From the NCBI GenBank assembly GCA_008632985.1, contig QPGO01000184.1, forward strand, positions 62,001 to 126,000: a stretch of DNA of 64,000 bases, in the 5' to 3' direction. The notes under the pieces are model-generated. The model was given only the letters and a program-made list of their open reading frames with translations. It was not told the DNA's origin and did not search any database. Positions 7,163-37,541 of the stretch are shown piece after piece. Positions within the stretch are counted from its first letter, which is position 1. Every line of letters begins with the position of its first letter. The position numbers and the translations under genes were made by a program. Source of the stretch: Psammoneis japonica (Eukaryota).

Positions 7163-7365
7163 TATGCCACGACGCCGCTTTATGCTTGACTACTGTTAAA
7201 TTTTTTTAATATTCAGCAATTGTTGAGGTGCAAATGAATCATCCCTTTGCATTCAATATAGGCAAGTGAAGATCGCCGAAGCGAAGGAGTGGTCAGGGTT
7301 GTGTACAGTAATAATGGGGCCCTATCGCCGTCGCTTTCAACAGCGTCATACATGAATGATGAATG

Positions 7366-8602
7366 GCGATGGATTTTTTCATTATTTATATAAAAATAAG
7401 TTTGCGATTCTTAAAAATAAATTTCACGACTGGCCTCCACGTGGATCTCCAAACGGCCCCAAAGGAGGCAAGCCCTTTCCGTTTCAACGGCAGACGTTAT
7501 TTTTAAATTTATTTAGCCTCGCCGGAACTGTCATCCAACGCATCGTGCGTTGCTCTTCTCTCGTTTCTCGTTTTGTTTCTTGTACATGCAGTGTATGGAA
7601 TAACTTCCACGATGATGGTGTTCCATGTCTACATCATGGTCTCGAATCCCATATGCTGCCAGAGGGTCCGTTTGTTCAGGAACTACACAACGTCGGTGGA
7701 CAACGCTCGCACAGCAGTGGCATTTCGAATCTCAAGATGGCAGGGGTAAATCAAGACAGCGACGGTGCTCCTGACAACGAAGTTGAAGTTATTCAAGTCA
7801 TCCATCCCAATGATGGGAATACCGAGCAACACAACGAAGTTTCGAACAAGGATTCCGACGATGACATTGTTGACGTCTGCTCCAACAACGATGGCAGGAT
7901 CGAGTGCGACAACGATGATTCGATCTCGGATGATGAAGTTGAAGTCATTCAAGTCCACCATCACACCTTGAGAGCGTCTTTCAAGCCATTCCTAATTGCT
8001 GGTGCAGCGTCGGCCATGAGTGTTGTGGTGGGAAATGAATTCGGAGCTGCCTTGAGCGCCGCCTCGGCTGCAAACTTGAAGTCCTTGCCTTTTTCAGAAT
8101 TTGGTAACGCCATGATGACAGGATGGCAATGGCGCTCCGCGTCGTCCACACCCATCATTATCACTGGATAGCCGGAACTCAGTGGCTTGTACGTGCCATC
8201 TAAGTTGCACCTTGAAGTCAGTTGGAACTTTCGCAGTGGGCGCTTTGTCGACATGACAATTCCGAAATCGTCTTTTGATGTGATGTGACAATCAAGGATG
8301 AAAGGCTCATCGTCGCCCAAACCGGGATCATTGACATCTTTCTTCATCTCGTCGCAATGTCGTTGAATCTCTGACACGGCTCCTCCTTCACGTTTACGAC
8401 GGTTCTTCAAGCAAGTCTGGACTTCTTTGTGGCTTGGTAGATTGCCATCGTTGGAGAGAAGATTCTGCTCTGCTAGATGTTCGTGAGGCAAGCCAACCAA
8501 TTGACACAAGATTCCATCAGCCGTCTTGGCATCTACATTTTTCTCAATGTGCTGCTTCTGCTTGTAAGTCAATCCTTGCTGTCGAGTGCTGTGATCCTTT
8601 GT
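7366..8602 (-). mobile_element. Mutator-like (MULE) DNA transposon, partial; transposase fragment ~7961-8602
   Basis: Minus-strand peptide LDGTYKPLSSGYPVIMMGVDDAERHCHPVIMALPNSEKGKDF...LMADAAPAIRNG matches the MULE DDE core; AT-rich terminal segment 7366-7520; sequence absent at the equivalent site in copy 2 (10615). Confidence 0.85.
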
Positions 8603-8603
8603 N

Positions 8604-9274
8604 AGTTCTTTTGCGGAGGATGCGACTGTAAATGGCATTCCAAGCTCTTCTTCCATATCCTTGGCGAATTCTTCCGAGCCGGCAAGACCAAAGGCAATGC
8701 CCTTGAATGGACGAACGGCAGCAGCGGCGCGAGCCATGTTGCGAGCAATAGCTCCACAACCGATAAAGCCAATAACATCTTGTTCCGGCGAAGAGCAGTA
8801 CTTCAAAGACACTGCACCCGCAGCCCCAGTACGTAGATCTGTCATGAATCGATTTTCTTGAAAGACTCCAAGCGGTGCACCCGTCACAGCATTTACAACA
8901 ACAAAGATACCGGAACCTGGAGGAAGGTTCTTCTCGGCATTCTTGTAGAACGAGACCATTGCCAACTTGACTGTAAAAGTTGGTGTTCCAGAAACATACC
9001 CACCCTTGATATGACAATCTCCGGGACCAGCCGCAGGAGACTCTTCAATTCCAATGTGCATGGGAAGTGGAACGTCCACCTTTCCTTTGGCTAACGCCTT
9101 GAAAGCCTCCTCGACACTGGAAATAGCATCGGCGACTGTAAGGTTTGAAGTTACCGTTTCGTAGTCAAACAACTTTGGTGGTGGAAATCCAGCAGTGGCA
9201 AAGGCTCTTGTCGCCACACCACTAGTCATGGCGGTGCGGCGAACGGCATGTCTCGCAAACGTTGACAGCAACAT
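8604..9274 (-). CDS. Second (3'-truncated at the N) copy of the ornithine cyclodeaminase gene; probably allelic/assembly duplicate
   Basis: Same sequence as 5354-6024; cut at N8603. Confidence 0.7.
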
Positions 9275-9881
9275 GGCGACAGTTCAAGCTCCGAAAGATT
9301 TGTGTCGGTTCATCAGCGACGACCAAAATTATTTGTACCTGATTTCTACGTAGATTCTACGTGATCCTATGAGGTAAAGATGACGGAATAGTGACGTAGA
9401 CAGAGGCTGACGTCATATCATGCACACAGGTAATTGATTCATTCGACTGGTTGAGCACGGGAGGAACAGATGATAAGACTCGAGACTCACTTTACTCTCT
9501 ACTACTCTAGCTCTAGAGCTACTCTCTCTAGAGAGTAGAGAGTACCGGTAGAGACTACTCTCTCTACTCTCTAGAGAGTAAAAAGATTTAGGTTGGCGAG
9601 CCTACTGGTACAGGAAACGCAAGAGCGCTACAGTACTGTATGTCTATCCATTGTTCATAGCCTAATCATCATGTACAGTTGATATTCAAAAATGGAAAAT
9701 AGTTGTAGCTGTCGCAGAAGACTTCAAAGAACCTACTGCTGTGGAACTCGTCTCATTTAGGCAGTAGCTTCTGGTTGGTTGTCTTGAAACTAGGTTTATC
9801 TTCAAATTATTGGCTTATTAATTAGCACTGTTGGAATCGGTGCGTAAAGGTAGCCGAATGAAAGAGAATATTTGCTGTCGT

Positions 9882-10412
9882 CTATTGTTTATGTCTTGAA
9901 GTCGCAACCGCGAAATAGTTTTCGCCTTTTCGTTTCACAGTCTTGTGTTTTAAATAGGAGCCCCAAATACTCTTGGCTTCTTCTTTTTCTTCCTCCTCAA
10001 ATGGATCAGAATCGCTTCGTCTCAGAGGAGCAGCAGTGACGCCCCGCGGAAGGTCGTAAATCTCCTCGTTGCTCACGTCGGGCAGGTTCACCTTTTTGAT
10101 TTGTTCCAAGCAATGCAACATGTTGGCTAAATCACGACGCATGGAACCCGTATCCTCGAGATATCGTATATCTAACAAACTCCGTTGTGCCAAGTTCTTC
10201 AATTCGTGCGTCGACACGGGTTCTTTGGCCGACGTGAGTTGCAAATCTTGAATCGACCATGTTGGCTCTGGTATCAGCACCTTATTTTCGTCGTTTTGTT
10301 TGCCGGAAGATAAGTTACGAAGTATTAACAACGTGAACTGTTTATTCTGGATGCTACAGGCACGAATCGTGGCTTGTTTTGCCGAGCTCTGGAGTCGAAC
10401 CATCAAAGGCAT
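9882..10412 (-). CDS. Second copy of the GatC-like gene; probably allelic/assembly duplicate
   Basis: Identical translation to 6632-7162. Confidence 0.6.
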   Translation of the reverse strand: MPLMVRLQSSAKQATIRACSIQNKQFTLLILRNLSSGKQNDENKVLIPEPTWSIQDLQLTSAKEPVSTHELKNLAQRSLLDIRYLEDTGSMRRDLANMLHCLEQIKKVNLPDVSNEEIYDLPRGVTAAPLRRSDSDPFEEEEKEEAKSIWGSYLKHKTVKRKGENYFAVATSRHKQ

Positions 10413-10846
10413 TATGCCACGACGCCGCTTTATGCTTGACTACTGTTAAATTTTTTTAATATTCAGCAATTGTTGAGGTGCAAATGAATCATCCCTTTGC
10501 ATTCAATATAGGCAAGTGAAGATCGCCGAAGCGAAGGAGTGGTCAGGGTTGTGTACAGTAATAATGGGGCCCTATCGCCGTCGCTTTCAACAGCGTCATA
10601 CATGAATGATGAATGACGCTGGGCTCGCGGCTCATTCGACTCTCGTTTTCGAATTTATGGAATAGATCATTTCAGCAGATTTTCGTATTCTTTTGCCAGA
10701 CTCCTGTACTATTATTAGTATTACACTCGAAGATATTTCCCCGCCGCACTGCAGGTTATGTGTTGCCGCATGAGGACACGTCAAAGAAAGCCCTAACGTC
10801 TAATCTAAAGCCATCTGACATACTTCGTACCTTAGAAACATTTTAA

Positions 10847-13800
10847 CTACGATGATCCTGATCCAGAGCCCGAGCCCGAGCCAGAGCCTGAGCCAGAGCT
10901 TGACTTCATTTTCTGCACCTCCAAGTCAAGATCTTTCTTTAGTTCCTTTGCCTCGGCTTCCTCTTGCTTCTTTCTGGCTTCTGCCTCATCTTCCATTCTC
11001 GCAATAGCATCCTTCTCATCTCGCGAATCCAAGTCTGAATTCTTCATCGCTTTCTTTCTATCTTTCAGTGCATCCTCCGCCTTCTTGATCTCGTCTTCTT
11101 TCCAGGCCTTTACTTCTGACCAGACCATAAGTGAAAGCCTGTACTGATGTTTGCTAACCACGCGGTACTTGTACAAAGCTATGCAATAGTTCTTCAGGAC
11201 TTCGAGACCTTCTTCCGCGCTCTTTTTTGTTTCGCAGGCTTCGACAAATGTTATGTACTGCAGCATTTTGTCATAGTACTCGGTCCGAATTCCCGAGTTC
11301 TTCAACCTGTTGCACTTCGAACACTTGAAAGTTTCCTTGGGCGGCGCAGGCTCAGACAAGGCATCACCATCTAGTGACTTTTCGCATTGCCAAAGCTGCT
11401 GCCGGGAGTGGTGTAGGTTCTAGTGACGGCTTTCTTGTTGGCTCGGAAGGTGGAGACGGCGTTGGTTGCGGTGTTGGACCTGGCGATGGAGGTGGTGTAG
11501 GCGCAGGAGTTGGTCCAGCAGTTGGAAACTGTGTTGGCTCGTCTGTAATCCGTTTTGTTGGCTCTGACGTAGGATTCATGGTCGGAACAGGAGTTGGAAG
11601 AGGGGTAGGTCCAGGTGACGGCATTTTCCTAGGGAACGGAGTCGGCCTGGCCGAGGGCGGTAGTGAAGGTGCCGGAGTAGGATTCATGGTTGGAGGACGT
11701 GTAGGAAAGGAAGTCGGACCCGGTGACGGATTTTTGGTTGGCTCGAGTGATGGAGACGGCGTTGGTTGGGGTGTTGTTGGTGTTGGACCTGGCGATGGAG
11801 GTGATGTAGGCGCAGGAGTTGGTCCTTCTGTTGGGAACTGTGTTGGCTCGTCTGTTTTCCGTTTTGTTGGCTGTGACGTAGGATTCATGGTCGGAACGGA
11901 AGTTGGAAGAGGGGTAGGTTCAGGAGACGGTTCTTTCGTTGGGAGACTCGTCGGGAGCGGAGTCGGCCTGGCCGAGGGGGTGGTGAAGGTGATGGAGTAG
12001 GATTCATGGTTGGACCTCGCGATGGAGGTGGTGTAGAAGCAGGAGTTGGTCCTTCAGTTGGAAACTGTGTTGGCTTATTTGTTTCTCGGTTTGTTGGCTC
12101 TGGCGTAGGATTCATGGTCGGAACAGGAGTTGGAAGAGGGGTAGGTCCAGGAGACGGTTCTTTCGTTGGGATACTCGTCGGGAACGGAGTCGGCCTGGCC
12201 GAAGGCGGTGGTGAAGGTGCCGGAGTAGGATTCATGGTTGGAGGACGTGTGGGAAAGGAAGTCGGTCCCGATGACGGCTTTCTTGTTGGCTCGACCGATG
12301 GAGACGGCGTTGGTTGCGGTGTTGTTGGTGTTGGACGTGGCGATGGAGGTGTGGTAGGCTCAGGAGTTGGTCCTTCAGTTGGAAACTGTGTTGGCTCGTC
12401 TGTAATCCGTTTTGTTGGCTCTGACGTAGGATTCATGGACGGAACGGAAGTTGGAAGAGGGGTAGGTTCAGGAGACGGTGCTTTCGTTGGGAGACTCGTC
12501 GGGAGCGGAGTCGGCCTGGCCGAGGGCGGTGGTGAAGGTGATGGAGTAGGATTCATGGTTGGACCTCGCGATGGAGGTGGTGTAGAAGCAGGAGTTGGTC
12601 CTTCAGTTGGAAACTGTGTTGGCTTATTTGTTTCTCGGTTTGTTGGCTCTGACGTAGGATTCATGGTCGGAACGGGAGTTGGAAGAGGGGTAGGTCCATC
12701 AGACGGTTTCTTCGTTGGAGAACTAGTAGGGTGCGGCGTTGGCGACGATGATGGCGCCTGTGTTGGTTCGTCAGTAGGAAGCTTTGTAGGCTCTCTGGTG
12801 ACTGGTACTGAAGTTGGCCTCAGAGTAGACTGAATGGTTGGAGAGCCTGTCACATCTGAAGTTTCCGCGGTTTGTTCTGAGGTTCTCGTGAGGCCACAAT
12901 TTTCACATGTGGCGCGACAACCGTCAAATGCTGATACAGAGTTGTTCTCCGAGTCTATCCCAACCAGTTTGCATCGTCTATCTGTATTCCTAGCAACAAA
13001 CTTGCAGTTCCTTTTGGAACCATTGTTCATAACGTGCCTCCATTTTTTGTCATCGGTGCATGCTGATCCACTGTGTGGGTTGATTTCACCGTTCGAAGAA
13101 GGTTCTGTAGGTCGCCCCGTAGGTGAAAGTGAAGGAGCGCTGGTCAGAGAAGATGTTGGAGCCGTCGTAGGACTCGGAGTTTTGCCTGTCGGCGATGTCG
13201 TGGGTGACGCAGTCGGAGCTTTTGTCGGTGAACTTGTGGGAGGCATCGTTGGACTACGAGTCGGGGCACTTGTGTCTAGCGTTTTCTTAGAATCTGCTAA
13301 CGAACCTATTGAGCCCCAAGTATTCTGCTCGATCGCCACAGGGCATTCGCCAGGTGGGTCATACAGGCCGCGTTGTCTATCAAGGTCAAAGTAGTATTCA
13401 TTGTTCGATTTCTGCTTTTTGAAGGAGATGATCATCGGATCTACACCAACGTAGTCAGATACTTCGAACATTTGTTACTGTACAGAACACATCTGAGGCT
13501 CACCTGAAAAAGCACCCGCTTCAACCTCGATTGACGTAAACTTGTCGTTTCTAGGATCGGTCTGATATACACAAAATGTGTGTCCTACAGAGGTGAAACG
13601 AGATAGGGGAATGAATATCCGTGTCGTGTAAGCCAATCTCCACATCAACATTCATGTCATGAATCGACGGCTATTCAAGCGAGCGATGGCGTTCACCCTT
13701 TTAAGAAAAGAAAAAACTCACCATTTCCATGTAGATATAATGTTGGAAGTCCCGGGTAGTCATTGCGCATATGTCGTTGAAATGGTCGACCAAATTTCTC

Positions 13801-18346: not shown

Positions 18347-20992
18347 ATGCGGCCGTCAATTTTGGAGTTTCGCTCACCTGGTCACAAAAACAAAAAGCAC
18401 CTGACCGTAGACATCCACAGTCTCTATCTTCCAACCATGTCATCGCCTTTCCTTCTTATCAAGCCATTGTGGTGTATTGCTTGGTCGTACAAACAAGTTG
18501 TGATCAGGCTAGTGTCCCTGTCGTGGGCGTGCATTCTTTTCAAGGAGATCGAGATGGCTGGGAAGTTCATCGATTTCGACAGAAGCGTCGTATCTCTCGC
18601 CTACTCAAGCCTGATCGATCAACCTCGACCGACCCTCGACATTTTGTCCGTTGGCTCCGTTTCAAGGCCCAAGTATCTGCAATCTCAGTTGGAAACTTGG
18701 GCGTCTCACTCATCGATTAGATCATTCATCGGAGTCACCGAGAAGGACGATTGTAATCAAACATGCTCCCAAATGAAAAAGGCAGAGACCCAGGCGTACA
18801 TCAACTCATGCCGGGCTAACCCAAGCTTCAGTACCCCCATCAAGGCATTTGCAGGTGAGCATTACTCTCACACAGAAGGAGAAACGCCAGACACGTACGT
18901 TGAAAGGACTGATCCCGGCTGGCATTGCGCCCAGAGACGCTTTGGTCAATCTCTACGAGTGCTCGAAAACAACATGCAGCATTCATCAGAAGAGGCTCTT
19001 GCAGACTATGTTGTCATGGTGGACGACGATACTTTCTTCAACGCTGACCTTTTCCATGATCACGTACAGTCTGCTGATCCGAGCGAAGCTCGAATGTATG
19101 CTGGATGTTTGTTTGAAGCAAACGAGACGATCAACATTCCATATGAATTCCCTTATGGTGGATTCGGTGTTGTTTTCTCCAAAGGAGCAGTGCAGCAAAT
19201 GATGAGACCCATTTTCTGCGGCAAGCGTGGCCTTCGCGGGAGCGGCGGGAGCGACTCTTCCGCAACTGCAATGGCAGGCGGTGATTCCTTAGTTCCACAA
19301 ACATGCAGCGCAATTCAAGCCAATCGCATTGGAGAACAGGTATTCTTCCGAGAGGGTATGTCGGTCATTGACCTCATTAGCGAATACTCAGCTCGAGCCA
19401 CGCGTTTTTGCGTCCACTCCGATTGGCTCATTGGATACATGGCAAAGTACTACCTCGATTTGAGCCCGCCGTTGGGTCTTGAAAGTAATGCCACAACGAT
19501 CCATCCAATACGAACCTGGCCCAATCAATGCGGCAACCACAGTCTAGTAGACACGTGCAGTTCGAAAGATATGTTTTGTCATCGTCAGTCTCCAGACGAT
19601 TTGAAGGCATTGACCGACGAAATACAAGCGCTAAGTCCGGGAGGCTTTCGCAATGCAAGCCTCGCCAACGATATGGCCAATACAAACATTGCTAACATTA
19701 CCGCTTTTCCGGCAAGCCTACCCAAGTCTTCCCAGCCACCAAGTGAGCAAGACTTACAAGTATCTGAAGCCGCAAAAGAATGGTTGAACGATTTCAAGTC
19801 GTCGCGGACAATGAAGATCAATGCGACCGAGATTGGTCAGAGATCCCCAGAGCAGGCCAAGGCCTGGATAGAAATGTTGAGGAATGACACAATCTTGCAA
19901 GAGCAACAAGAATCCTCCCACCGCGATCCAATGGTAGTCTGGAAAGCTCCATCCGAATGGATGACTCCAAGACAAGTCTTACCTGCGAATATTGATCACA
20001 ACGAGCTAGCTCATGTTGTTGAGCAACTACGCAACGGCAAGATCCTCAAGGCAACCTCAGCACCGGGGGGATCGCAGCTCAAGCTTCTCTTGGAACTTGA
20101 AGGCGGTCAACAAGTCATATTTAAACCTGAAAGAGAAGGTCCAGGAAACGACTTACACAACTCCGAGATTGCGGCTTTCCACGTCGCTCGACTCTTGGAT
20201 ATGAGACGGGCTCCCATTTCGGTCGGTCGTCGGATTGACATTGAAAAGGAGATCCTACCAGTGGCCACGCCCGAATTTCGTGATACTTTTACAGACGCTT
20301 TGGGCAGGACGAACTGTTTCTACGGAACCTGCGAGTTTTGCGACAATCCCGTGTGCCCTCGTGATGACGGAACAATGCATGGCGTTGTAATTTTGTTTTT
20401 GCCCAAGAAACTGCGCAACGGTTCCGACCTTGTCCTTGGGCACAAAAGTACGAGATTTCCACTCATGGCATGGAACGACAAGGATAGAGAACGGGTAGAG
20501 CTCATGAAGTCCAAGGATTACTGCGACGTTCACGTCAAGCCTGAGTTTCCCATGGAACCAAGGATTCTTGACGTCGTTGAGACGTCCATTTTTGACTTTC
20601 TTATTCAAAACGTTGACCGCCATACACACGAGTTTGTTGATGAAGAAGACAACGGTGCAGTGCTACTGATTGATCAAGGCAAGAGCTTTCTACCCGAGTC
20701 TGCAGAGAATGACGAGATGAAACTTTTGTTGCCTTTGACCAGCTGTTGCGTCGTGCGCGAAAAGTTGTATGAGCATCTCCAATGGATTGCAAGGTGGGAT
20801 GTGAACATGTCCGATGCCCTGCTTTATCTAACGTCGGTTGACATCGCAAGTCACGCAAGAGGGGAGGAGAAAATTCTGCCTGATGGTGAACTTGCTTCGT
20901 TGGATCGAAGGCTGAAAATTGTTCTGGACGCAGTGAATACTTGCGTTGAAGAGCGCGGTAGGGAGAACGTCTTGGTGGATTCTATTCCGTAG
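18347..20992 (+). CDS. Fusion of a Fringe/GT31-like glycosyltransferase and a Fam20 (Fam20B-like) secretory kinase
   Basis: Intronless ~880 aa ORF (start may be ATG 18437). N-half: VMVDDDTFFN, YAGC, FPYGGFGVVFS, HSDW. C-half: GSQLKLLLELEGGQQVIFKP, HNSEIAAFH, RRAPISVGR, CFYGTCEFC, IFDFLIQNVDRHTHE, LIDQGKSF, PLTSCCVVR. Confidence 0.9.
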   Translation: MRPSILEFRSPGHKNKKHLTVDIHSLYLPTMSSPFLLIKPLWCIAWSYKQVVIRLVSLSWACILFKEIEMAGKFIDFDRSVVSLAYSSLIDQPRPTLDILSVGSVSRPKYLQSQLETWASHSSIRSFIGVTEKDDCNQTCSQMKKAETQAYINSCRANPSFSTPIKAFAGEHYSHTEGETPDTYVERTDPGWHCAQRRFGQSLRVLENNMQHSSEEALADYVVMVDDDTFFNADLFHDHVQSADPSEARMYAGCLFEANETINIPYEFPYGGFGVVFSKGAVQQMMRPIFCGKRGLRGSGGSDSSATAMAGGDSLVPQTCSAIQANRIGEQVFFREGMSVIDLISEYSARATRFCVHSDWLIGYMAKYYLDLSPPLGLESNATTIHPIRTWPNQCGNHSLVDTCSSKDMFCHRQSPDDLKALTDEIQALSPGGFRNASLANDMANTNIANITAFPASLPKSSQPPSEQDLQVSEAAKEWLNDFKSSRTMKINATEIGQRSPEQAKAWIEMLRNDTILQEQQESSHRDPMVVWKAPSEWMTPRQVLPANIDHNELAHVVEQLRNGKILKATSAPGGSQLKLLLELEGGQQVIFKPEREGPGNDLHNSEIAAFHVARLLDMRRAPISVGRRIDIEKEILPVATPEFRDTFTDALGRTNCFYGTCEFCDNPVCPRDDGTMHGVVILFLPKKLRNGSDLVLGHKSTRFPLMAWNDKDRERVELMKSKDYCDVHVKPEFPMEPRILDVVETSIFDFLIQNVDRHTHEFVDEEDNGAVLLIDQGKSFLPESAENDEMKLLLPLTSCCVVREKLYEHLQWIARWDVNMSDALLYLTSVDIASHARGEEKILPDGELASLDRRLKIVLDAVNTCVEERGRENVLVDSIP

Positions 20993-21241
20993 GACTGGAT
21001 CCGCACGGAGAAATCGTCAAGTAACAGCACATTTGAAATGCCTCACAGGCATTTTTTATACATCATAATCAATAATAGACCGATTCGGCGTTGATACAGG
21101 TTTTTCCATTCAGTCCGCGGCGCGTCGAGACTCAAGTCCAATCAGAGATTGCGCAATTGCGACCCGTCATTTGTTGCCTCTTTCCAAAAAGGAAACGAAA
21201 TAGTGGATGGCGGTTATCCTTTTGTGTCGCATCAGGCATCA

Positions 21242-22020
21242 CTACGAAAAGTAGGTATTTTTCAAATTTGTCCCATTCCAACTCGGCGAAATAACAATCC
21301 CCAGCATGAAAGACATCAGCACCATCAACAAAATTGATGCCAACCTTTCACCCGTAGGTACCATACCAGAGCAGTCAAGACACCTCCGATTGCCTTTAAT
21401 AAAATGGGCCAACACGTCGACCACGTCCAATTTGAAAAGAATTTTGTTGTGGAAACACCACCCTTGCAAATATTAGAGAGAATGAATGCAAGTACTGAAC
21501 AGCCGATACTTCCATGGTATACAAGTACGCGTTTCGTCCTCCACACACGGTTTGTAAGCCTTTTGCGACAGTGCACCGGCAAGACCCGAGAAGAAGGCAG
21601 CAAACAAGCACGGAACAAACTCATGCAATAGTCTCTGTCGCTTCTTGTTATTGGTATTGCTCTTGTCGGCGGTGATGATAGCAGTGGTAGTAGTTGCATC
21701 GTCCTTATGATTCGAGTCATCGTCGTAGTCGCCACGTCGTTGTCGTCTTTTACGAAACAACCATGCAACTGTAGCAGTTTGATCAAACGCTCCTTGAAAC
21801 AGCATATGGCGGAGTATCCTACCAAGATCAAGGCCACAATCTGAGTCGGACTTTGAGTTTGGTGCAATAGCAACAAGTAACAAAGGGCCGCCCACGCCAT
21901 TTTCGTTTGTGAAACATGCCATTAAAGGTGACGGCATCTAAAGTCTGATACGAGTACAAATACAAAATACAGCTTAAGCGTATAGAGTACAGCTGGAAAT
22001 CCCGCCACCACGTTGTTGTT
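21242..22020 (-). pseudogene. SLC35A-type nucleotide-sugar transporter, multiply frameshifted and 5'-truncated
   Basis: Motifs scattered over frames: AGFPAVLY, YQTLDAVTFNG, TKMAWAALC, CLFAAFFSGLAGALSQK, RNAYLYTME, FFSNWTWSTCWPILLKAIGGVLTALV. Confidence 0.75.
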
Positions 22021-22119
22021 GCTCCAATACACGGCTGCTGCTGCTGCTGCTGTTTTGGCGTGTTGTTACAATTTCAACATTGTGCTTGCCAAGCAAGGTG
22101 CATAAAGTTATTGGTCCGT

Positions 22120-25100
22120 TGATGTGGCTGCGGTCAGCCGTGTGACAAGTGACAAGTCGACGCCGGGGAGGTACCCGGAGTCATGGCGGGTTCATTCATG
22201 CCCAACCCCAATCGAAAAATGCCGGCAGGGTTTTTCGACCACAACAAAAAGCGCAATGGCAACTTTTCATGATGCTCTTTGTTCGTTGCAAATGGTTCAT
22301 GGCGGTTCGTTTGGTGAAGAGAAAAGCACACCTTCATGATCTCGTTTTCGAGGCACGTTGTCATTTTGGGGGAAATGGATCTGGCCGGCTTTTTGCTGGA
22401 TGACACTGTCTGATGAACAAGTCGCAGCTGCCAGTGGAGCTTCAAACATGTGGCATTTGTTTCCACTGGAGTGGTGACATTGGTGGGTGGAGTTGGTGAG
22501 AGACATTGATGGGGGATGCCATGCTTGCACTGCCAATTGACCCATTTTGTTTGTTCATGAGATGACATTGTGGCACCATGACTTGACGGTTCCGGCTGAG
22601 GATTTGCAGCTGGGAGAGTGTTGGCCGACACGCTGAACAAGAAATTGTGCCCCATTTGTTGCTGTCCATGGGGGTGCACTGACTGCACACATTGTGAGAG
22701 TGAGTTTCCTTTGGATTTCATCATGGCACCCATGACAAAGACTTTTAAAAAGTGGAGCCACACATGGTCAACAAAACATGTCAGATTGATTGACAACATT
22801 TCTTCTTCCCTTTGACTTGTCTCATGTGCAGAATGCAGTGCATCATTTTTTCCTTCTTGTGTTGTGTGGTCACAAAAAATGCAAACCACAACGGCTCCAG
22901 AACAAAGGCCAAGGCAAAAACAGAGCTGCGCGTGAGCAATGTCAACATGTGTGATTTAGCGGCAAAGATGACATTGTCTGATGAGCAAGTCGCAGCTGCC
23001 AATGGAGCTTCAAACATGTGACGTGTGGCAACATTGGTGGGTGGAGTTGGTGAGAGACATTGGTGGGGGATGCCATGCTTGCACTGCCAATTGACCCATT
23101 TTGTTTGTTCATGAGATGACATTGTGGTGCCATGACTTGGTGGTTCCAGCTGAGGATTTGCAGCTGGGAGAGTGTTGGCCGACATGCTGAACAAGAAATT
23201 GCACCTCATTTGTTGCTGTCCATGGGGGTGCACTGACTGTGCACATTGTGAGAGTGAGTTTCCTTTGGATTTCATCATGGCACCCATGACAAAGACTTTT
23301 GAAAAGTGCAGAACAAAAAGAAGAAAACTTGTTGGGTTTGGTTGCATCCGGACCATTTTGCTCGGCAAGAAGATTTGGTGCACAGCAAGGGTCGATGGCG
23401 GATTGAGCCTTCTGTCTGGCACACATCAAAAGGTCCAGCGATGATGACCTGTCAAGAGCATGACCAAGGACATGACAAATGACATGTTCATCCGCCTGCA
23501 CATCCATGTTCAAATCTGCCCAGCAAAAGTGCTGATGTTGTTTTTGAGTGTGGGGCCCACCATGGAAGCACTTTGCACCCGGCACAATGTGACACCTGTT
23601 GCCCTTGCACCATCAGCTGTAGCTTGTTTCATTTGAAGGAGGTTTTCCATGCCTGGGTCATTTGGGAAATCTTGATTCCAGAATCACCTCTAAACAGGGA
23701 ACAAGCATGGACCCTCCTGTTGTTGTTGGCAGCCCTGCATTGGCTCGTCAATGTTTTTTGAATGGATGGAAGGGTGGTGCATCTGACGTTGAACCATCTG
23801 GAGTGTCAGCCATGCTGTGGTGTGCTTGAGTGCAATTGCACCTGAGCTGCAGCATTGATTTCAGGATGTGGCGGCTCCATCCTCACTCCTGTCCTCCTGA
23901 GACAGCTCTGCAGCTTTCTCCGGCTGGCCCAGATTCAATCATCTCACACATTCTTTGGAGTGAGGGGAGTCACACAGTTGCCAACAACCAAGCCATCCCA
24001 AACTGGCAATCCACAATTGTCATCAACACACAGCATTTGTGTCTGCTGGCAATGATGCGCCAAGTTGACATCATTGCCATGTGTTGGCTCAACACAGTTG
24101 CACTGCACTGAATTGTTGCTCATCTGTGGACCTTGTTCAAAATGACTGCTGCATGTCTGACTTGTGGCCTGTCCTCAAAAAGGACCAGTTCAAACAATTG
24201 TGCTCCAGCCAACATTGCAATCCATTCCCAGCTTTTGCATGGTGGGAGTCGCAGCAACCTTTTTTGTTTTAAAGCTGTGCCTGATTGTTTGTCTCCTTTC
24301 ATTTGAAATGCAGATGCCACACGAGGCACGTGCAACTTGTCTTGTTCATTGTCATCCATGTTGTTTGGCATCAGTGCAGCATGAAACTCTGTGGATGCAT
24401 CAGCATTGCCACTGGGAGAAGTCTCGAAATTGCCAACGTGGTTGTGACCATTTGGGGGGAGTCTCAAGCCAGCTGCTGCTAAAAAATGTCTGCTCCTCAG
24501 TGCCTTTGGGGGGTTGCCAGCACCTGGTGCAATTCTGCAGCACGTGCACAAGAAGATGACGAGTCTGTCCGCAGCTTTCACGGCTGGAGACTTCCCCCAC
24601 ATTGAACATTGATGGACCTGCACCATGATGACAGCCGCGCGGCCCTCATTCTTTCTCTGCCTTGTGGGTTTGGGTGGACAACATCACAAACATGAGAAAG
24701 ACAAAGTGTTGGTCCTGGTTTGGATTCAAAGGGACCAGCAACAGGGGACGGACTGTGTGGAAACAGCAGCAAGGAAGTCTTTGCAGCCACAGCACATTTT
24801 GCCATGAAGATGAGGGCAATGAGAGACGATTCGATGTGTCATGTGCAAACGAGCAAAAGTTGGCTTGTTGCTTTCCACTGCGCAGTGATGGTCCAAGCTC
24901 GATGGCATGTCTTGCTCTCGCGACAAGCTGGTTTCGAGAAAACCCCACCAGCAAAAGAAAGAGATTCATCGGAAAGCAATGCAACCTCATCCTTGCCATC
25001 ATCCTTTGTTGTTTCCATCAGATTCATTGTCGACAACTGATGCCCTTGTCAAGGAACAAATGAAGATGGCTGCACATGCCGACATGCGCGGGTCTGGAAT

Positions 25101-26440
25101 GAACAACAAAAAGATCAAATGGGTGTGTTTGCCGCTGAATGAATGCTTGATTGTGCTTTTCTCATGATGCTCTCAGATGTCTGTCGTTTGTCATGCAGGA
25201 ATTGTTGCAAGTTGGTTGACTGATTGGGACAAAGAAGAAACCAACAACAGCTCAATTGAGCCAGTTTTTAACTGCACACATTCTGCTGCCATTGCTGTCC
25301 GAATGCTTGACAACAAGGAAGTGTCTTCTCCTCTCAGTGGGTCATAAAATGAGCACGCACTTTGGGGCTGCAGTGGAAAGGAACACCTCGCGTTGATCAA
25401 CGCAGCCAGCTTAACAAGCTCGGGCAGAGGCATTCAATGCGGGAAGTCCTCAAAAAGGAGCTGGTCTCATGTGCGTCATGATGTGAGGTGTGCACGGTGC
25501 AGCACAACATTTGGAATTTTGAACATGCACTGTTGCATTTTTTGTTTTTGTTTTTCCAATTCTGTGCGCATCCTTGCATTCACACATCCGATGGGTTGGA
25601 CACTGTGTCGCTCAAAACCGAGTGCGGCAAGCAGTCCCAAGACCGCAAGGATTGTGCAAATTCAAATTGTCATTCACATGAAAAGGGCAGCCAACTCATC
25701 CATTTTGTTTGCCTTTAGCCTTTTCGCAGGTGGTTCCGCCAAATCCATTTGGCTGTCACTTGACTTCCTCTTTCTGGGGTTTGGGCTTGGGAAGGCCAGA
25801 CGGCGTCATGGAGCACACATCACAGTCGCTCCATGATGGCCACAAGGTTTGCAATCTTTGAAGAGACGACTGGCTTGGCAGGCCATTTCATGACAGGTGC
25901 CTCCTCACTCCTTTCAAATGGAGTTGTCGAGGAAGCTGTGAAGTGCGATTCTTCTGTGGAAGCAATGCTTGGTTCATCTGGAGCTGGTGTTTCAGAGGGT
26001 GTTGAAATTGCAAGCTTCTTGGTGGGCTTGGTCAATCCCCTTCCAGTCGTGATTTGCACTCGTCCAAAAAGGTCAGTTCGTTCGTCAATGTCTGCCTTGT
26101 CTTTTTCTGCTTGGGATGAAATTTCCATTCGTCTAAAACGTTCAACCAGGTCGTCTAACTCTCCATTGTCTTCTTCACCACTGGGCACTTGATTGTGCAG
26201 GGGCTTGGGGACTCTGTTGTTTGGTTCAACACGGGGTGCTAGATTGCACAGGGGTGCCGTAACAAGGACTGGAAAGCTGGACGGAAGCAGTCGATGCTGT
26301 GGTTTCATCTGACACAGGGGCGCCACAAGGAGTGGACAGCTGGACAGAAACTGCAGACGTTGTCGTTTAGTCCGACACAAGGGCGCCGCAAGGATGAGTG
26401 GAAGGGCCAGACAGAAATGGCCAATGTCATCGTTTAGTCC
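22120..26440. other. TpA-depleted hypermutated block B
   Basis: Only about 16 TA sites seen by eye over ~4.2 kb, about 13 of them YTAR. Confidence 0.9.
22400..23306. repeat. Diverged direct duplication (~22400-22752 vs ~22969-23306)
   Basis: Alignable throughout; substitutions are mostly transitions, many at TA/CG/TG/CA positions. Confidence 0.9.
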
Positions 26441-27350
26441 GATGCGGGTTGCAATGTCCATGGGTTGGGCATTCGCAGTTGATAAAATAGAACGCACAAC
26501 ATCAACCGTGAGGAGTTTTGCAGGCGATGTGACGCGCGCAAGAGGCGTTGGCATGTTTCCCGGCGTTGGACAATCATTTGAAAGCGGGAACTCGAAGATC
26601 GCCGCAGCCAAAACCGAGGGACTGGAACTCGTGTTGTCAAACTTAAGCAAAAAATTTCCACGGACGTTCAGATTGGGGGGCATGCGGAAGTTTTTGAGGC
26701 CTTTGGTGACGAAAGACTCGATTTGGCTCACGTTGGTCGCGGAGGATTTGAACTCAATCCCGACACAAACGGAGGTTGGAGCGCAAGCGAGAAAGACTTT
26801 CTTCGAGTCCAAGGTAGAATTGACAGCCTTGAAAGGCACATTGAGGGGATGGACTTTGCCAAGGGCTTGGGCGAGTCCGGAATTGGGCGTGATCGGAAGC
26901 CGGTGAATGCGCTCGACCTGGGTCGCGCATGATTTGAACTCATTCGCGACACAAACGGAGTTGGAGCGCAAGCGAGAAAGACTTTCTTCAAGTCCACGGT
27001 AAAATTGACAGCCTTTAAACGCACATTGAAGGAATGGACGTTGCCAAAGGCTTGGGCGAGTCCGGAATTGGGAGTGATCGGAAGCTGGTGAAGCCTCTGA
27101 GCCACGCCTCGTACGACATGCGGGTGGAGCTCTCATGTATAACAATCGACAGAGTCTTTTTTGTCGGCGTGGCAACAACGTCGTGAGTCGTGTCCGCTTC
27201 TTCATCGTCGCTGCGATTCGAGTTTGCTTTCAAAGCGAACAAGGTCAAGACGGAAACGGCGGCAAGAGGATCGTTGCGGGTCAAAGCAACGACACCACCA
27301 GAGATGATAGTAGAAGAGAGGATGGTAACGACGGTCGAAGAGAATTTCAT
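25820..27350 (-). pseudogene. Degenerate or frameshifted gene of unknown function with ~185-bp and ~60-bp internal repeats
   Basis: Signal-like N-terminus MKFSSTVVTILSS (27350) in a different frame from the 461-aa ORF; repeats 26745-26907 vs 26932-27092; 3' half lies in block B and lacks Tyr. Confidence 0.45.
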
Positions 27351-31973: not shown

Positions 31974-32019
31974 ATTGCACTTCAGAATTATGCGGGTTGC
32001 GCATTTGGTGGCTTAGTGC

Positions 32020-35000
32020 AGAGAGAAGGAAGGAAGACACAGGATGCCATGAGGTTGCCAGCACCTCTGTTTTCTCTTGCTTGGTCAATTTTCCTTCTCA
32101 GCACCGACTGAAGAGACTGATGCCGCAACAGCAGCAGCACTTCACCTTGTCACACAGACAATGCTTGTGCTCCAAGCCAGAGCAATGGTTTGAACATCAA
32201 ACAACTTCTTTTGTCGGTGGCAAAGCAGACACAAGTCCTGCAGCATTTGAATGCAGTGACACGTGAGAAGCTACAAACAATGATGCCACGTGTTTGCTTT
32301 GATTGCGGTGCAGCAGCTTCACGCGATGTAGCGCCTTCTTAACCTCATCATGAAGACACGATCTCGAAAGAGTCGAAGCATGGCATGTTCTTCAGGTGGG
32401 ACCCATGGACCCATGCTAACCCGCTCCGACAGATTCAGACTGGGCAGTTCTCGTGGCAGGAGGATGCAATCGCCAGCTGCTGTTCTGTCGATTGTCGCAT
32501 CGTCATGCATCCCCTGCCCGAATCCCACAGATTCGCAAGTGGCAGTTCGCAATTAACGTTTTTCAAATGAGCCTCATTTCACGACTAAATTTTGTTCGAA
32601 CCTGCCTCATCAGCGACCCCTTTTGGCGAGGGCAAATGCTGGGCAAACCTGCAGCTTCAAAAAAATCACAACGTAGAAATGCGCAGAATCAGTGCCGCAA
32701 GCAATCCCATCAGAGGCCCATCACGGCACAATCGGCAAAATCAGTTCCGCTGCTGAAGCACTCACAATCCTCTTGCTCTTTGTAGAGTTGCGGTTGCACC
32801 CCTTGTTGCCATTGCAGTTGTGCTTTCTGTGCTGTTAACTCAACTTTGTGCCCAGCTTCATTCTGGCGTGGTGGGCACTGCAGCTCACAACCCACAACAA
32901 GGAACTGTGTTTGCTGCTGTGGTTTTCTTGCCTCAGCAGCACCCCTTTGCATTGATTGCTGGTGGACAACATTTGGCTTGCGCTGGGTTTCCCACCATCA
33001 TGACGGTCCCCATGGGATTCAGAATGAGATGTCCGCTGACTGCTGCTTTCTCGCCTGTCTTGAGTTCTTCTCTTGCAGTGGCTCAGAGGACCGTCGCCGG
33101 TTCTTGCAATTCTCCTCAAACTTTGTGACTCACCAGTGCTGTTTGTTCTTTTTTCTCTTCTGTGCAGATTGCACTGTGCCGCCCCACTTTCCCTCTCAGA
33201 TGGCTCTTGCTTTTGTTGGAATGTTGTCAGAAGATTGTTGAAAGAATCCAGGTGGTCCGAGCCGTTCAAGACTTTGCAGGCGAAAAGAAGAGATGAGTCG
33301 AGTCACTAGCCAACTTGATGAAAAAGTGCTCAGAGACATCAAGAAACTTTGCACAAAGAAGAAGTGCGGGCAAGACAAAGCGGACAAGGCTGCGATTGAA
33401 GATTGCACAGGCTCGGGCTGCTCGGAGATTGCAACAAGTTGCTTCGTGGTCATCAAACAATGCTGAATCCTGAAATGCTGAAGACACGAGCCAACCATGT
33501 GGATCAAGCCCTCCAATGCTGTCCAAAGCTGAAGTCTTTCAAGGGCATTGTGTGTCGTGGTGTGGAGCTTTTGCAAGAAATGTGCAGTTCATTGAAGCCT
33601 GGCAGCACATTTTTTGACCCAGCATTTTTGAGCACATCTTGCAAATGGGAAAAGTGCAAGAGCTTTCTTTCTGGCAAAGGTGGCTGCAGCACACTCTTTG
33701 AGATTGATTGTAAGATGGGTGTGGACGCAGAGCCACTGGCAAAGAAAAAGAACAAGTGCAAGTGCAAGACATTGTTTCGACCAAGTGCAAAGTTTCTCAT
33801 CAAGTCTGTTGAACAACGAGTTGATGCCTTCTTTGGAAAGATCACTTGTGTGTCCATGGAGCAACCAGCAAACTGGTGAGGGAAGTGAAGCAATGGGCAA
33901 GGCAAGCAAGGTGAGCACACCCACAGCAATTTGCAATTTACTTTTGCACATGCTCTCAGCTGGTTCTTTAGTTGCAAATTTAGATGCTGTCTCACCACAT
34001 GATGACGGTGCCAAAACAGTTGTGTTGATGTCCGGATCTCTGCAGTCAGCTTTGCAGTTCATGACTCCAGTTGGTGCCTTTCTCATTTTGTCTCTGGCAG
34101 AGAGTCAGCATTGTTGGTTGAATGATCACGAGCATGATGCCACAGTTGCATTGAAAAGCAAAGGTCTCCTGTGCATTGTCCTCTTCCAAAGCCTCGCAGC
34201 ATTCCGAATTGGGTGATCTGCCGTGTTGTTCTTCGAAGCCCATCATCTCTCTTTCTGTGCATCGTCAACAGCACTTTGAATGTTGCGCCCACTGTTTCTC
34301 TTCTTTGGTCTCATCATTCTGAGCTCCTCCAACCAGAGCAGTGCAGAATTGCCTGGTGGCCTGTCCATTTGTGAAATTGTCCACTTTCGAAACACAATTG
34401 TCTCCTCACTCAAGAAAGGCTTTCTTGTGACAACAGAGGCACCATCATCCAATTCTTTTCAAGCTTTGGCCTCCAACTTTTCCAAGCAGAGCAGTCCTTG
34501 GTGTTGACCCGGACACATGATTGTTCCATGTCTGTTGCAACCAGCGCAATCTCCCTCATGTGCATTTTGTCACAATCATGGTCGCGGACAAAAACCAGTT
34601 CCATCATTGGCAGTTTTCCCTGCAATCCAACACAACACACAATTTCAAATTGCTTCCAAAGAGTGTTCTTGTTGTTCATTGCAGTTCGCTTCATGCAAAA
34701 TGTGTCTTGCCACCGTGACAAGTGCCTCATCATCCCCACAATTGTGCCACGCTGCACCAAATGTGTCCGTCCCTCTTGAATTCTTGAATCAAGCACATCG
34801 CTCAAATTGACAATCCACAGCATCCTCCCACAGGATGATCATTCCACAAGCAGAGTTGTTTGCAAAATTTGTTTTGTGCTTGAAATGAGCAGAGTCACAC
34901 ATGTGTGGTTGCACTTTTCACAGGTGTTCCAATTTTTCAAAAACCAGCCAAGGCAGCCACTGTGGGCTCCAAACAATTTTTTGACACATTTTCAGCAGCA

Positions 35001-37500
35001 AATGTGGCACTGCACCAAAATTGTCATTTTTTGATGGGTTGACAGTCAATTTTTCTGAAGACCACATGTTTGCAATGCTTTGTTTTGCAGCCCAGCATCT
35101 TGTTTTTAGAGTCAGCTCACTCTTTGCTTGGAAGAGTTTCACCCCAACTGTCCGTTGCATGCATTTTTTTGTGTTTCTGCTGAATTCATTGCTTTGTCAC
35201 ATTAGACACCACACAACTCAGCTGCCAATCTGCTGATTGCACAACAGTTGTGTGCACCCATGTCCTCATTGCATGTCTGACAACAATGAAAAGACTCTCC
35301 TCTGACTCCTCATTGAACCAAGCTCCTTTTGACAGAAAACACCGCTGCAAAGTTGAGTCACAACAAAAACAATTGTGAAAGCTCAGTGCAAAGTGTGTGA
35401 GCCAAAGCAAGTTTGTTGGTCGAACGCACCACAGAAAGGGGGCACTGAAATGACCAGATGGCTCCACATTTGCCAGATGCTTTGAAGACAATCAATTCAA
35501 GGAGCCATGCAATGACAACCCTGATCCCTCAGCAGCGACACAAGCAGACAGCAACAAAACTGCAGCAGTGACACCCACTCTGCTTCCAGCAAGGAGATGG
35601 AAAAGACAGTCAGTCAAAATTCAAGCAACAATGACTGGAGTTGTGACAACCAGCTCAGAGATGGCACACATCATTTGGTGACTGATTTTTGAATGAAGTG
35701 GCCAAAACTGACAAAACAAGAGACTCAAACATGCGCGACATTTGGGATTTGGAAAAGCCTTCAGGTGTTGTGTTGACACAACAGGAGAAAATGACACATT
35801 CCAAAAAAGAGGGGAAAACTGTGCAGGGGCAAAGCCAGCCTTGTGCTCAACTGTGGACAGAGGCAAGTTGCAGAGCACAAGTGATGTGGGCTGAGTGCAC
35901 TGATGCAGTCCAGATGCCATTGAATGATCTTGGTGTGAGCTGCAAGTCCAACCTGCTCCATCTAAAAAAAAACACACGCATGTGGGCACATGCTGCTTGC
36001 ACTTCAACCAGCGCCACACACTGCACAGCAGAAAGCAAGCAAAGAAGAGCCAGAAAAGGTGGCAGCCACAAATGCAAATTTCAAAACACAGTTCATGGAA
36101 TGGGTTGCCAGTGTCAAACATGTGTCTCCTGGTCATGGTGGCACCCTGAAGTGCTCCTCCCTTGTGCCTTGCCGGGGTTTGGCATGTCTTTGAACTTCAC
36201 ACACAGCTTGCCAGTGGCACAACTGCAGGCTGACAAATGTGATGCCACCAAAGGAAAGGCACAAAGTTTTTGGTTTGTTGGCAACATGTCAAGCCACAGA
36301 TGGATCATCTGCCCAAGTGCAAAGTTCTGGCTGCTGCAAAAATCAGCCAAAGAAGTGAAAGCCTCTGCAGAAGAACCTGGCTGGTGGTTGCTGCTGCTGT
36401 GTGCTGGAAACAAGCNNNNNNNNNNNNNNNNNNNNNNNNNNNNNNNNNNNNNNNNNNNNNNNNNNNNNNNNNNNNNNNNNNNNNNNNNNNNNNNNNNNNN
36501 NNNNNNNNNNNNNNNNNNNGGGGGGGGGGGGGGGGGGGGGGGGAGAGTTGGGTGACATGATGTGTGTGCACTGCACACTGCCGCCATTTGCGCACAAACA
36601 TGACACAGGCATTTGACTTGAGTGGCAAGCTTGTGAACTTGACTCATGTTGAACAAATTGTGGGAAAAACAGTGCTTCAATTGCCATGATCTGCTCTGCT
36701 CTGCTCTCTGGTTGTTGGAGCCACCCATGGAACAAGTGGTTGCATGGATGTCTTGCAGGGAGGAGCAGAAAGAAACACCTTTTGACACACACTTAAGTCA
36801 GCTCTCAATGACAACATCTGGGCTGTCACAAGCAACTTTTTCATCAGCTGCCATCCTTTGTTGAATGGTGCAACATGGGAGGATGAGCCCAGAGGTCACA
36901 CAGAGATGCTGCTGGCAAGAGAAATGCAGCTGAAGTGTGGTGGTGAGAAAACCCAAGTGCTGAGTGCTGAGACAGATCACAACGTGTGGTCATGCACGAG
37001 CTGGCTTCAACAAGAACAGGGCATGAAGCAACACAATGGGCCAAAGACGGCTGGCACAAAAGAGTGGCAAAAGCTCAGGTCAAATTGCAGGTGGAACCCA
37101 ACATGCACCAGCACTCCAGCAGAAAACAGAGCAGACCAACTCACAGAGAGATCCGAGCAACCATGCCCGCAGCTGGGCATCTCGTCTCTCTGACGAACTC
37201 ATCAAGAAAGAGCTCCAAGCTGCTTTTTAAAAGAAGCAATGCTGTGCTTTGATTCTTGCATCAGTGTGAGTTTTAAATGCAATGAATGCATGTGCTGTAC
37301 GTGCCGCCGCCCACTCTGTGTTGTTTGGTCTGTCCCCAAGACCAAAACAGAAAACAGCCGTCAGAGCAAAGAGCAAAGGCGTCAGATGTGACCAACTCAA
37401 GACTCAAGTCGTCATCCGCCACCATCCACACGCCCGCCACGTCGCTCGTTCTTGCTCGTTTGCTTTTTTGAATCACGGAGCAACGGATCGGAGTCGAATG
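32020..37500. other. TpA-depleted hypermutated block C (contains assembly gap 36416-36519)
   Basis: TA nearly absent; survivors mostly ttag/ctaa/ttaa/ctag; many overlapping Cys/His-rich spurious ORFs. Confidence 0.9.
33290..33879 (+). pseudogene. ADP-ribosyltransferase (VIP2/C3-like R-S-E family) relic
   Basis: AAIEDCTGSGCSEI / NKLLRG ... VCRG ... FLSTSC ... LFEI ... NKCKCKTLFRP correspond to YT..GY..IN..LR, YRG, STS and ExE.L motifs with Tyr->Cys and Glu->Lys changes. Confidence 0.8.
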
Positions 37501-37541
37501 GCAAGAGCGTCAAAGCGGGACCGAGTCATTATTTCGACGCC

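Follow-up and report, generated by a model that had tools for sequence, protein, structure and literature searches.

The 64,000-nt stretch of contig QPGO01000184.1 from Psammoneis japonica that we analysed (contig positions 62,001 to 126,000; hereafter the window, with positions counted from its first letter) contains a short direct duplication, 22399-23311, whose copies A and B differ at several sites where one reads CA and the other TG. The duplication sits within a block of about 3.8 kb that is nearly free of the dinucleotide TA; the window has five blocks of this kind. What these blocks carry is saturated regional hypermutation that destroys TpA, together with decay of CpG, in a diatom-like genome, and it follows a newly resolved rule according to which the affected adenine is that of TAY (Y, pyrimidine; R, purine). 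We place a probability of about 0.8 on the reading that the duplication lies in a silenced intergenic domain under two context-specific, strand-symmetric transition processes, one at TpA and the other at CpG.

The first process would convert A:T to G:C at TpA, the mutated A being that of 5'-T-A-Y-3' (equivalently, the T of 5'-R-T-A-3'); the two strands would be hit independently, with an intensity set by the 3' base in the order T > C > G >> A, and the process would be nearly saturated. The second would be a partial conversion of CpG to TpG/CpA, as expected from deamination of 5-methylcytosine (5mC). Under either process a palindromic pyrimidine-purine (YR) step would become CA or TG according to the strand hit, and a site resolved on opposite strands in two copies would appear as a CA/TG double difference. 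The domains would stop at gene edges and leave the genes unaffected.

Composition of the TA-free blocks

Over the whole window the observed/expected ratio (o/e) is 0.41 for TpA and about 1.37 for CpA/TpG, and a 1-kb profile resolves these averages into a mosaic. Normal stretches have TpA of 0.5-0.8 and CpG of about 1; the five blocks hold 0-10 TA/kb against about 45/kb in normal sequence, with CpG of 0.1-0.75 and CpA/TpG of 1.6-2.1. The blocks were called by a two-state Viterbi path (Table 1), which assigned 27,738 of the 64,000 nt to them, and their share of the window is about 37-43%. Their edges are less than 100 bp wide, and the open reading frames (ORFs) of flanking genes end 60-500 bp away. 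Beyond block 2 the path runs on through most of a 469-aa ORF with internal tandem repeats (26246-26448 and 26726-27117) and no Pfam family; this stretch, though TA-poor, does not look converted.

For pooled comparisons, block cores (23,696 nt) were set against normal cores (33,298 nt), leaving aside 7,006 nt of transition zones and gaps. In the pooled blocks TpA o/e is 0.06, CpG is halved, and CpA/TpG are raised by a matching amount. YR steps make up 0.244 of dinucleotides in the blocks and 0.239 in normal sequence, and it is their partition that shifts: CA, CG, TA and TG account for.290,.226,.181 and.303 of them in normal sequence and for.439,.106,.018 and.438 in the blocks, while RY and RR/YY steps are almost unchanged. 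A two-parameter conversion of normal sequence, with 90% of TA and 55% of CG turned into CA/TG, lowers the root-mean-square (RMS) dinucleotide deviation from 0.0186 to 0.0046. The GC content of the blocks is unchanged (0.47-0.50) because the two conversions offset each other.

Both strands are affected alike. The blocks contain 2537 CA and 2531 TG, the variance of the CA-TG imbalance at 100-1000 bp is binomial (1.1-1.4), and a CA/TG step matches its neighbour in type in 50.4% of cases. This balance at all scales means that there are neither strand-coordinated runs nor a transcription-type asymmetry. The losses of TA and CpG occur together in the blocks: across 19 block windows of 1 kb, the numbers of TA and CG that remain are correlated (Spearman 0.60, p=0.007). 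CpG loss is milder (610 observed against about 1,233 if untouched, a survival ratio of 0.49), graded within blocks, and quicker with A/T flanks.

Sequence context of the TA loss

Survival of TA in the blocks depends on the bases at both sides, ranging from 0 of about 71 expected in ATAT, through 0.007 in ATAC, 0.024 in GTAC, 0.026 in ATAG, 0.065 in ATAA, 0.075 in CTAC, 0.14 in GTAA, 0.21 in CTAG and 0.31 in CTAA, to 0.77 in TTAA. A multiplicative per-strand model, in which each A is hit with an intensity set by its 3' base, describes these ten classes (deviance 1.98, 6 degrees of freedom (df), p=0.92) with fitted intensities of 0.16 for A, 0.86 for G, 1.82 for C and 2.74 for T, compared with a deviance of 141 (9 df, p=6e-26) for a context-free model. 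A non-genic baseline (12.7 kb without Pfam-supported ORFs) gave the same answer (A 0.27, G 1.05, C 1.82, T 2.96; deviance 3.2), and all five blocks share one order of survival, with RTAY at 0-0.03, mixed classes at 0.04-0.15 and YTAR at 0.33-0.44.

The products follow the same rule, since TGY and RCA increase in the blocks as predicted. The trinucleotide RMS of the blocks is 0.0068 without conversion, 0.0021 with flat conversion and 0.0015 with T[A>G]Y, against 0.0027 for an alternative placement of the neighbour. The neighbour effect sits beside the mutated base, T[A>G]Y or, equivalently, R[T>C]A.

Content of the blocks

Within the window the blocks show no similarity beyond two small pairs, even in a purine/pyrimidine-coded self-search. 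The three sequencing runs found all stem from one sample, probably the source of the window, and none is recorded as RNA. Logan contigs from this sample match 23242-25867 with 0-2 differences, and for the greater part of blocks 2 and 3 their depth is close to that of single-copy sequence. A Pfam scan of 111 block ORFs of at least 90 aa found none with a reverse-transcriptase, integrase or other transposable-element (TE) or viral domain, although old degraded elements may remain. It returned weak or small matches only, and the recognisable relics are an uncharacterised CCCH-finger family, DUF6940, LRR_6 and Ctr; the last three, in block 4, are probably gene relics. At 35198-35199 in block 3, with flanks T__C, the window reads CA and two read-derived contigs from the same sample read TG, a double difference that lies between alleles or close paralogues.

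ORFs of 150-355 aa that run from stop to stop are frequent on both strands of the blocks (for example 22134-22955 and 62144-62893); when translated they contain no Tyr and much His and Cys. These long ORFs are false and a trap for gene prediction, arising because TAA and TAG are lost and TGA is the sole stop left.

Direction of the change

The direction of the change, from TA and CG towards CA/TG, can be read in two places away from the duplication. The first is a relic gene in block 4. For residues 168-351 of the ORF at 44300-45364, a search of 1.84 billion representatives yielded 82 homologues with E<=1e-3 (best 3.8e-32), and local tblastn with 14 of the 82 placed the match at about 44753-45451. 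The closest homologue is 38% identical over 183 nearly ungapped residues (BLASTP). All four of its Tyr face His or Cys in the relic (CAT, TGT, TGC, TGC), and its nine Arg correspond to three CAT, two CAA, two retained codons (CGT, CGA) and two other residues; the Arg at position 319, conserved in 96% of the 25 aligned homologues (of 82), is CAT. Across these 25, 39% of the 61 Tyr cells face His/Cys, compared with 7.8% for all cells. In no column of the family is Tyr the majority residue, so the Tyr evidence comes from few sites, namely those of the closest homologue and the pooled cells. Its members are proteins of about 750-850 aa in 82 clusters at 50% identity, one of which occurs on five contigs. 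A weak C-terminal CCCH zinc finger is the sole Pfam domain of the family, and no Pfam family was found in the 15 of 82 homologues scanned; ten clusters carried no names, neighbours in the ESM Atlas were annotated only as 'hypothetical protein', and no PDB relative appeared at E<0.3.

The second is a repeat of which one copy straddles the edge of block 1 and the other lies in block 4 (68% identity, or 84% in purine/pyrimidine coding). The straddling copy has one TA in its inner part (4429-4633) and 14 in its outer part (4634-4828), and of the 11 TA that could be aligned, 8 stand opposite CA/TG in the partner. As the same repeat is TA-rich outside the edge and TA-free within, the TA-free state is a property of the place and not of the element. 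Genes are spared. In eight ORFs, TpA across the codon 3|1 boundary has an o/e of 0.60 and occurs most often as RTAY (55/170), which indicates that their spared state is regional and does not reflect selection on protein sequence.

The duplication and the ancestry of its double differences

Copies A and B are spaced 554-568 nt from start to start, with a 14-nt indel zone near 22453-22470; Tandem Repeats Finder gave no rows for 20000-26000. Of 341 ungapped columns 19 differ, 18 by a transition and one by a transversion, and YR steps hold 12 of the 19 differences, while the non-YR columns give a background transition divergence of 3.6% (6/165). Five pairs of neighbouring differences were seen where 1.0 was expected (P=0.0017, 100,000 permutations with the 19 placed randomly), so the pattern exceeds chance. 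The observations of a preliminary description of this DNA were confirmed: ttttAaaa in copy A facing ttttGaaa in copy B, the four CA/TG double differences (Table 1), CG against TG at 22587 and 22631, and CG against CA at 22594. Its premise that TA and CG, both palindromic YR steps, decay to CA/TG is borne out by block composition and relic codons. Its proposal that the duplicate records the direction of mutation went too far, as two copies without an outgroup cannot polarise the changes and a model with CG alone fits the raw counts. In the spacer between the copies, a short element at 22784-22877 has loose ends on both sides in read-derived contigs, in which its depth reaches about 3,100 (at 22874) where single-copy sequence has about 55, and a 36-nt relative lies at 59941-59976 in block 5; the element may be a dispersed short repeat. 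In read-derived contigs of runs X1 and X2 (at least 80% likeness), depth is high over 22671-23337.

The preliminary description had explained the double differences by hits on opposite strands of one palindrome, TA or CG, and this is the best reading for the three columns flanked by G__C, the fourth (G__A) being ambiguous. With block-derived rates (for GCGC, from the pooled CpG rate to twice that), the probability of opposite outcomes is 0.474 for GTAC and 0.030-0.092 for GCGC, which at normal site density corresponds to 0.60 and 0.02-0.06 expected opposite doubles per 341 bp. Flanks, rates and the small number of flips expected (below) together favour TA ancestry for the columns at 22574, 22648 and 22686. 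Judging from these contexts, GTAC would be the favoured ancestor over GCGC, and the duplicate alone is no proof.

Two other histories of these columns have to be weighed. Decay of methyl-CpG alone would require that all four columns come from CG hit on opposite strands and that the TA purge predates the duplication. CpG o/e by the duplicate is just 0.2-0.3, and a hand calculation with about 70% decay per copy predicts 0.8 CG/CG, 4.7 CG/x and 3.5 CA/TG sites where 2, 3 and 4 are counted. However, GCGC is among the most resistant CpG contexts of the blocks (43 observed against 46.5 if untouched), the three G__C doubles stand against the 0.02-0.06 just given, and one TA/TG difference persists at 22747; we consider this history improbable. 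The outcome that the preliminary description had named as overturning it, with every column tracing to CG and nothing but methyl-CpG decay left, does not apply, because the change of TA to CA/TG is demonstrated independently of the duplicate. The doubles may also be mainly flips in one lineage, in which CA or TG passes through a short-lived TA or CG and is then resolved on the other strand, with no ancestral palindrome. At 3.6% background transitions about 1.9 such flips are expected in the duplicate (about 1.1 via TA and 0.8 via CG), although only 0.11 fall in seven G__C steps, where three doubles are seen. As a general explanation flips are therefore unlikely, and it is the G__A column that they suit. 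There, opposite outcomes have a probability of 0.108 from GTAA and 0.078-0.179 from GCGA, and a flip from TG through transient TA to CA is a plausible and better explanation than opposite hits on GTAA.

Occurrence in other sequences

The signature was sought in metagenome contigs around the gene for aldose 1-epimerase, one of those in the normal stretches, with an alignment of the window protein and 29 of the 120 matches listed. Among the 61 loci found, 32 were diatom-like (at least 40% identity; 178,213 nt, several redundant). One of these, L006, whose aldose epimerase is 44% identical, contains a block some 2 kb long (about 1250-3200) beside normal sequence, with 2-8 TA/500 bp against 25-35 in the adjoining sequence, CA/TG of up to 2.06 and CpG of 0.45-0.86. 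RTAY survival in it is 0.08 against 0.23-0.25 for the other classes (17 TA in total). The remaining 29 loci, mostly bacterial, showed no such block.

Genes and other features of the window

The normal stretches contain long, mostly unbroken ORFs for ordinary cellular proteins: a Fam20C/Fringe-like protein, two ornithine cyclodeaminases, a sulfotransferase, an RSN1/OSCA-type channel, aldose 1-epimerase, PIG-U, an amino-acid transporter and ribosomal protein S17. The aldose epimerase has at least 7,997 relatives among 8,000 scored, and the best among the matches listed is 60% identical; the species named among the matches listed are all diatoms, at 43-52% identity (Seminavis, Fragilaria, Mayamaea, Cyclotella, Amphora, Skeletonema and Thalassiosira).

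Several other features were noted. A 2-kb direct duplicate (5354-7372 and 8604-10622, 99.9% identity) carries an ornithine cyclodeaminase ORF; its second copy begins right after a single N at 8603, and the ORF there extends into weak similarity to a MULE transposase. The pair could stem from haplotypes or the assembly, or else be a segmental duplication of very recent date. The tandem repeats at 11416-12743, about 230-550 nt in length, lie within an ORF rich in Pro/Thr (PT repeat), with GC and AT strongly skewed. The draft assembly has four N gaps. The N gap at 56370-56702 is flanked by an inverted repeat (56171-56336 and 56703-56861). A tandem array at 57508-58124 adjoins the ribosomal protein S17 gene and has a TpA o/e of about 1.0.

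Table 1. Coordinates of the blocks, the duplication and related features in the window (block and ORF ratios are o/e)
Feature	Position	Strand	Details
TA-free block 1	1801-4633		15 TA in 2833 nt; TpA 0.08, CpG 0.22, CA/TG 1.76; sharp edges
Repeat copy across block 1 edge (4634)	4429-4828	+	about 400 nt; TA-rich outside the block only
TA-free block 2, carries the duplication	22110-25900		Viterbi end 27307; 25900-27307 not counted as converted
Copy A of direct duplication	22399-22757		aligns with 22967-23311
CA/TG double difference	22475-22476		A TG, B CA (23029-30); flanks G__A; ancestry ambiguous
CA/TG double difference	22574-22575		A CA, B TG (23128-29); flanks G__C
CA/TG double difference	22648-22649		A TG, B CA (23202-03); flanks G__C
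CA/TG double difference	22686-22687		A CA, B TG (23240-41); flanks G__C
Surviving TA, copy A (TTTTAAAA)	22746-22747		B TG at 23300-01; in TTAA, a resistant context
Copy B of direct duplication	22967-23311		aligns with 22399-22757
469-aa ORF adjoining block 2	25820-27229	-	TpA 0.14-0.28, CpG 1.0-1.3; without CA/TG excess; GC-rich
TA-free block 3	32015-37529		21 TA in 5515 nt; TpA 0.06, CpG 0.37, CA/TG 1.76
TA-free block 4	43463-52393		37 TA in 8931 nt; TpA 0.06, CpG 0.53, CA/TG 1.66
Relic, N-terminal domain of an uncharacterised family of about 760-aa proteins	44804-45350	+	inside block 4
Partner repeat copy	46900-47267	-	wholly inside block 4; TA-free
DUF6940 match	49133-49747	-	1e-6; inside or at edge of block 4
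LRR_6 match	50055-50462	+	4e-9; inside or at edge of block 4
Ctr copper transporter match	51438-51752	-	8e-10; inside or at edge of block 4
TA-free block 5, continues past window end	58740-64000		34 TA in 5261 nt; TpA 0.10, CpG 0.62, CA/TG 1.60

Discussion

The composition of the blocks may have causes other than a directed mutator acting on DNA. Blocks could have been born TA-free, as foreign DNA of odd composition, or selection (against sites of cleavage or insertion, for instance) could have removed their TA, and their sharp, insertion-like edges would suit such an origin. We hold it to be very unlikely, since mass balance and product trinucleotides match the conversion of normal sequence, the loss obeys a multiplicative per-strand rule, the edge-straddling repeat is TA-rich only outside its block, and the Tyr codons of the relic gene now read His or Cys. 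An artefact of sequencing or assembly, for instance through modified bases being systematically miscalled, would find support in the draft state of the assembly with its gaps, but is extremely unlikely: the X1/X2 contigs reproduce block 2 sequence almost exactly (same sample, with the platform not on record), an unrelated metagenome contig has the same signature, and the duplicate copies differ in the expected pattern. A-to-I editing of RNA by ADAR- or ADAT-like enzymes, fixed by reverse transcription of retroelements, is hardly credible either, in spite of the strong preference of adenosine deaminases for a 5' U/T beside the target (Discussion of bioRxiv 10.64898/2026.01.13.699255). The strands are equally hit at every scale from 100 bp, none of the 111 block ORFs carries a TE or viral domain, the blocks remain single-copy in the window when coded as purine/pyrimidine, and the 3' preference runs T>C>G>>A; the equal CA and TG counts, the binomial dispersion and this 3' order speak against ADAR-type editing fixed by retrotransposition.

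A closer contender keeps both the direction and the motif and lets the thymine be hit, by modification of T in 5'-RTA-3' (of the 5-hydroxymethyluracil (5hmU) or base-J type) or by biased T:G repair, giving T to C. The motif is equally writable as R-T-A, 5hmU occurs preferentially at TpA in dinoflagellates, and base J is found at TpA in kinetoplastid telomeres. However, 5hmU derived from T pairs with A and is, to our knowledge, not known to yield near-pure T to C, whereas hypoxanthine yields exactly A to G. The authors of a preprint on the chlorarachniophyte Bigelowiella natans also favour adenine deamination (bioRxiv 10.64898/2026.01.13.699255). We regard a hit on thymine as unlikely, though worth keeping in view.

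Several points weigh against the two-process reading. The 'untouched' baseline is neighbouring, mostly genic DNA. CpG survival fits the per-strand model poorly (deviance 21.5, p=0.0015). Three G__C doubles were seen where 0.60 are expected even under the TA model at normal GTAC density. The CA/TG product of the straddling repeat pair contradicts the per-strand prediction at about 4 of 8 TA columns, the pair being too diverged for this test. No such block was found in 31 of the 32 diatom-like metagenome loci. Finally, the preference for T over C at the 3' side matches neither ADAR, which prefers a 3' G, nor known ADAT substrates.

With regard to the agent of the TpA process, we infer an enzyme that would act on duplex DNA, or on either strand equally, and would read the bases on both sides of its target. 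TadA, ADAT2-3 and ADAR convert A to I, which is read as G; their substrates are RNA, and the natural site of TadA is U-A-C. The window differs in that both strands of genomic DNA are hit, with the 3' order T>C>G>>A, and the enzyme is deduced from this footprint. A DNA adenine deaminase producing hypoxanthine, read as G, would be our preferred candidate, at slightly less than even odds; it is preferred because hypoxanthine pairs with C and gives a pure A to G change. Such a deaminase would be recruited to a chromatin or methylation domain carrying 5mC. That targeting would follow such a domain, and neither sequence repetition nor foreign origin, is suggested by the single-copy state of the blocks in the window, the lack of viral and TE matches among the 111 ORFs, and the block edge that cuts through a repeat.

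Among known systems, the nearest is that of B. natans. In its mutation-accumulation lines 231 of 302 nuclear point mutations fell in integrated giant-virus and virophage regions; nearly all of these regional mutations were A to G or T to C, these all on TpA. Their rate was about 6e-7 per site per generation, some 1000-fold over background, and the genome contains 124 clusters depleted in TpA and enriched in CpA and TpG (bioRxiv 10.64898/2026.01.13.699255). The agent that the preprint's authors put forward is an ADAT2-type DNA adenine deaminase. The likeness extends to the change itself, A:T to G:C at TpA with TpG or CpA according to strand (a footprint here, new mutations there), to confinement to kilobase-scale regions with genes elsewhere unaffected, and to the depletion of TpA with enrichment of CpA/TpG. 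In contrast to B. natans, which belongs to Rhizaria, the window comes from a diatom-like stramenopile; its blocks are near-totally depleted (0.06) over about 37-43% of the sequence, compared with a Rho of 0.45 in the virus region and a cluster cut-off of 0.43 there; they showed no viral or TE domain among the 111 ORFs scanned with Pfam; and they lose CpG alongside TpA. The main text of the preprint mentions no wider sequence context, TAY rule, gene-edge boundaries or CpG.

The blocks also resemble the products of ascomycete repeat-induced point mutation (RIP), which likewise makes regional, strand-symmetric, dinucleotide-specific transitions that ruin non-genic DNA and leave a compositional mosaic. 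RIP, however, turns CpA into TpA, leaves AT-rich, TpA-rich sequence and requires duplicated sequence, whereas the blocks lose TpA (o/e 0.06), reach CpA/TpG of 1.7 at unchanged GC and are single-copy in the window. Very-short-patch repair, together with the scarcity of CTAG in enterobacteria, represents a net change of a TA-containing word into CA/TG words; it is repair-driven, genome-wide and tied to one pentanucleotide, and cannot yield the regional near-total loss seen here. Decay of methyl-CpG in the methylated repeats of vertebrates and plants matches the CpG component, in which a CpG deficit is balanced by TpG/CpA, is graded and quicker with A/T flanks, and has turned Arg CGN into CAT/CAA at 5 of 9 relic sites, but it cannot remove TA. 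Hoguin et al. report DNMT5-dependent TE methylation in Phaeodactylum and a RID-like DNMT4 in many diatoms (PMC9998398), so methyl-CpG decay in silent diatom DNA would be unsurprising.

A full-text literature search returned no report of TpA-destroying hypermutation in diatoms (the SPLASH paper, PMC9258296, which surfaced in it, is irrelevant), and the sole prior report of a TpA-destroying mutator that we found concerns the viral inserts of B. natans, in the 2026 preprint (bioRxiv 10.64898/2026.01.13.699255). In the window such a process is seen at its end state, and in a second lineage that is distant and of major ecological importance. Mutators with regional targets are rare as well as informative, the main examples being RIP, AID/APOBEC and methyl-CpG decay, and here the TAY rule and the gene-edge boundaries provide handles on the enzyme and on the targeting signal. 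The finding also bears on how diatom genomes dispose of non-genic DNA. Tentatively, and as a possibility that we would still bet against, diatoms may possess an 'inverse RIP', in which a TAY-specific DNA adenine deaminase would act at heritable domains of silent chromatin or 5mC and erase long non-transcribed DNA up to the edge of the transcription unit. Since the same signature arises de novo in a chlorarachniophyte, such a system would be an ancient and widespread genome-defence mutator of the stramenopile-alveolate-rhizarian (SAR) lineage rather than a quirk of one alga.

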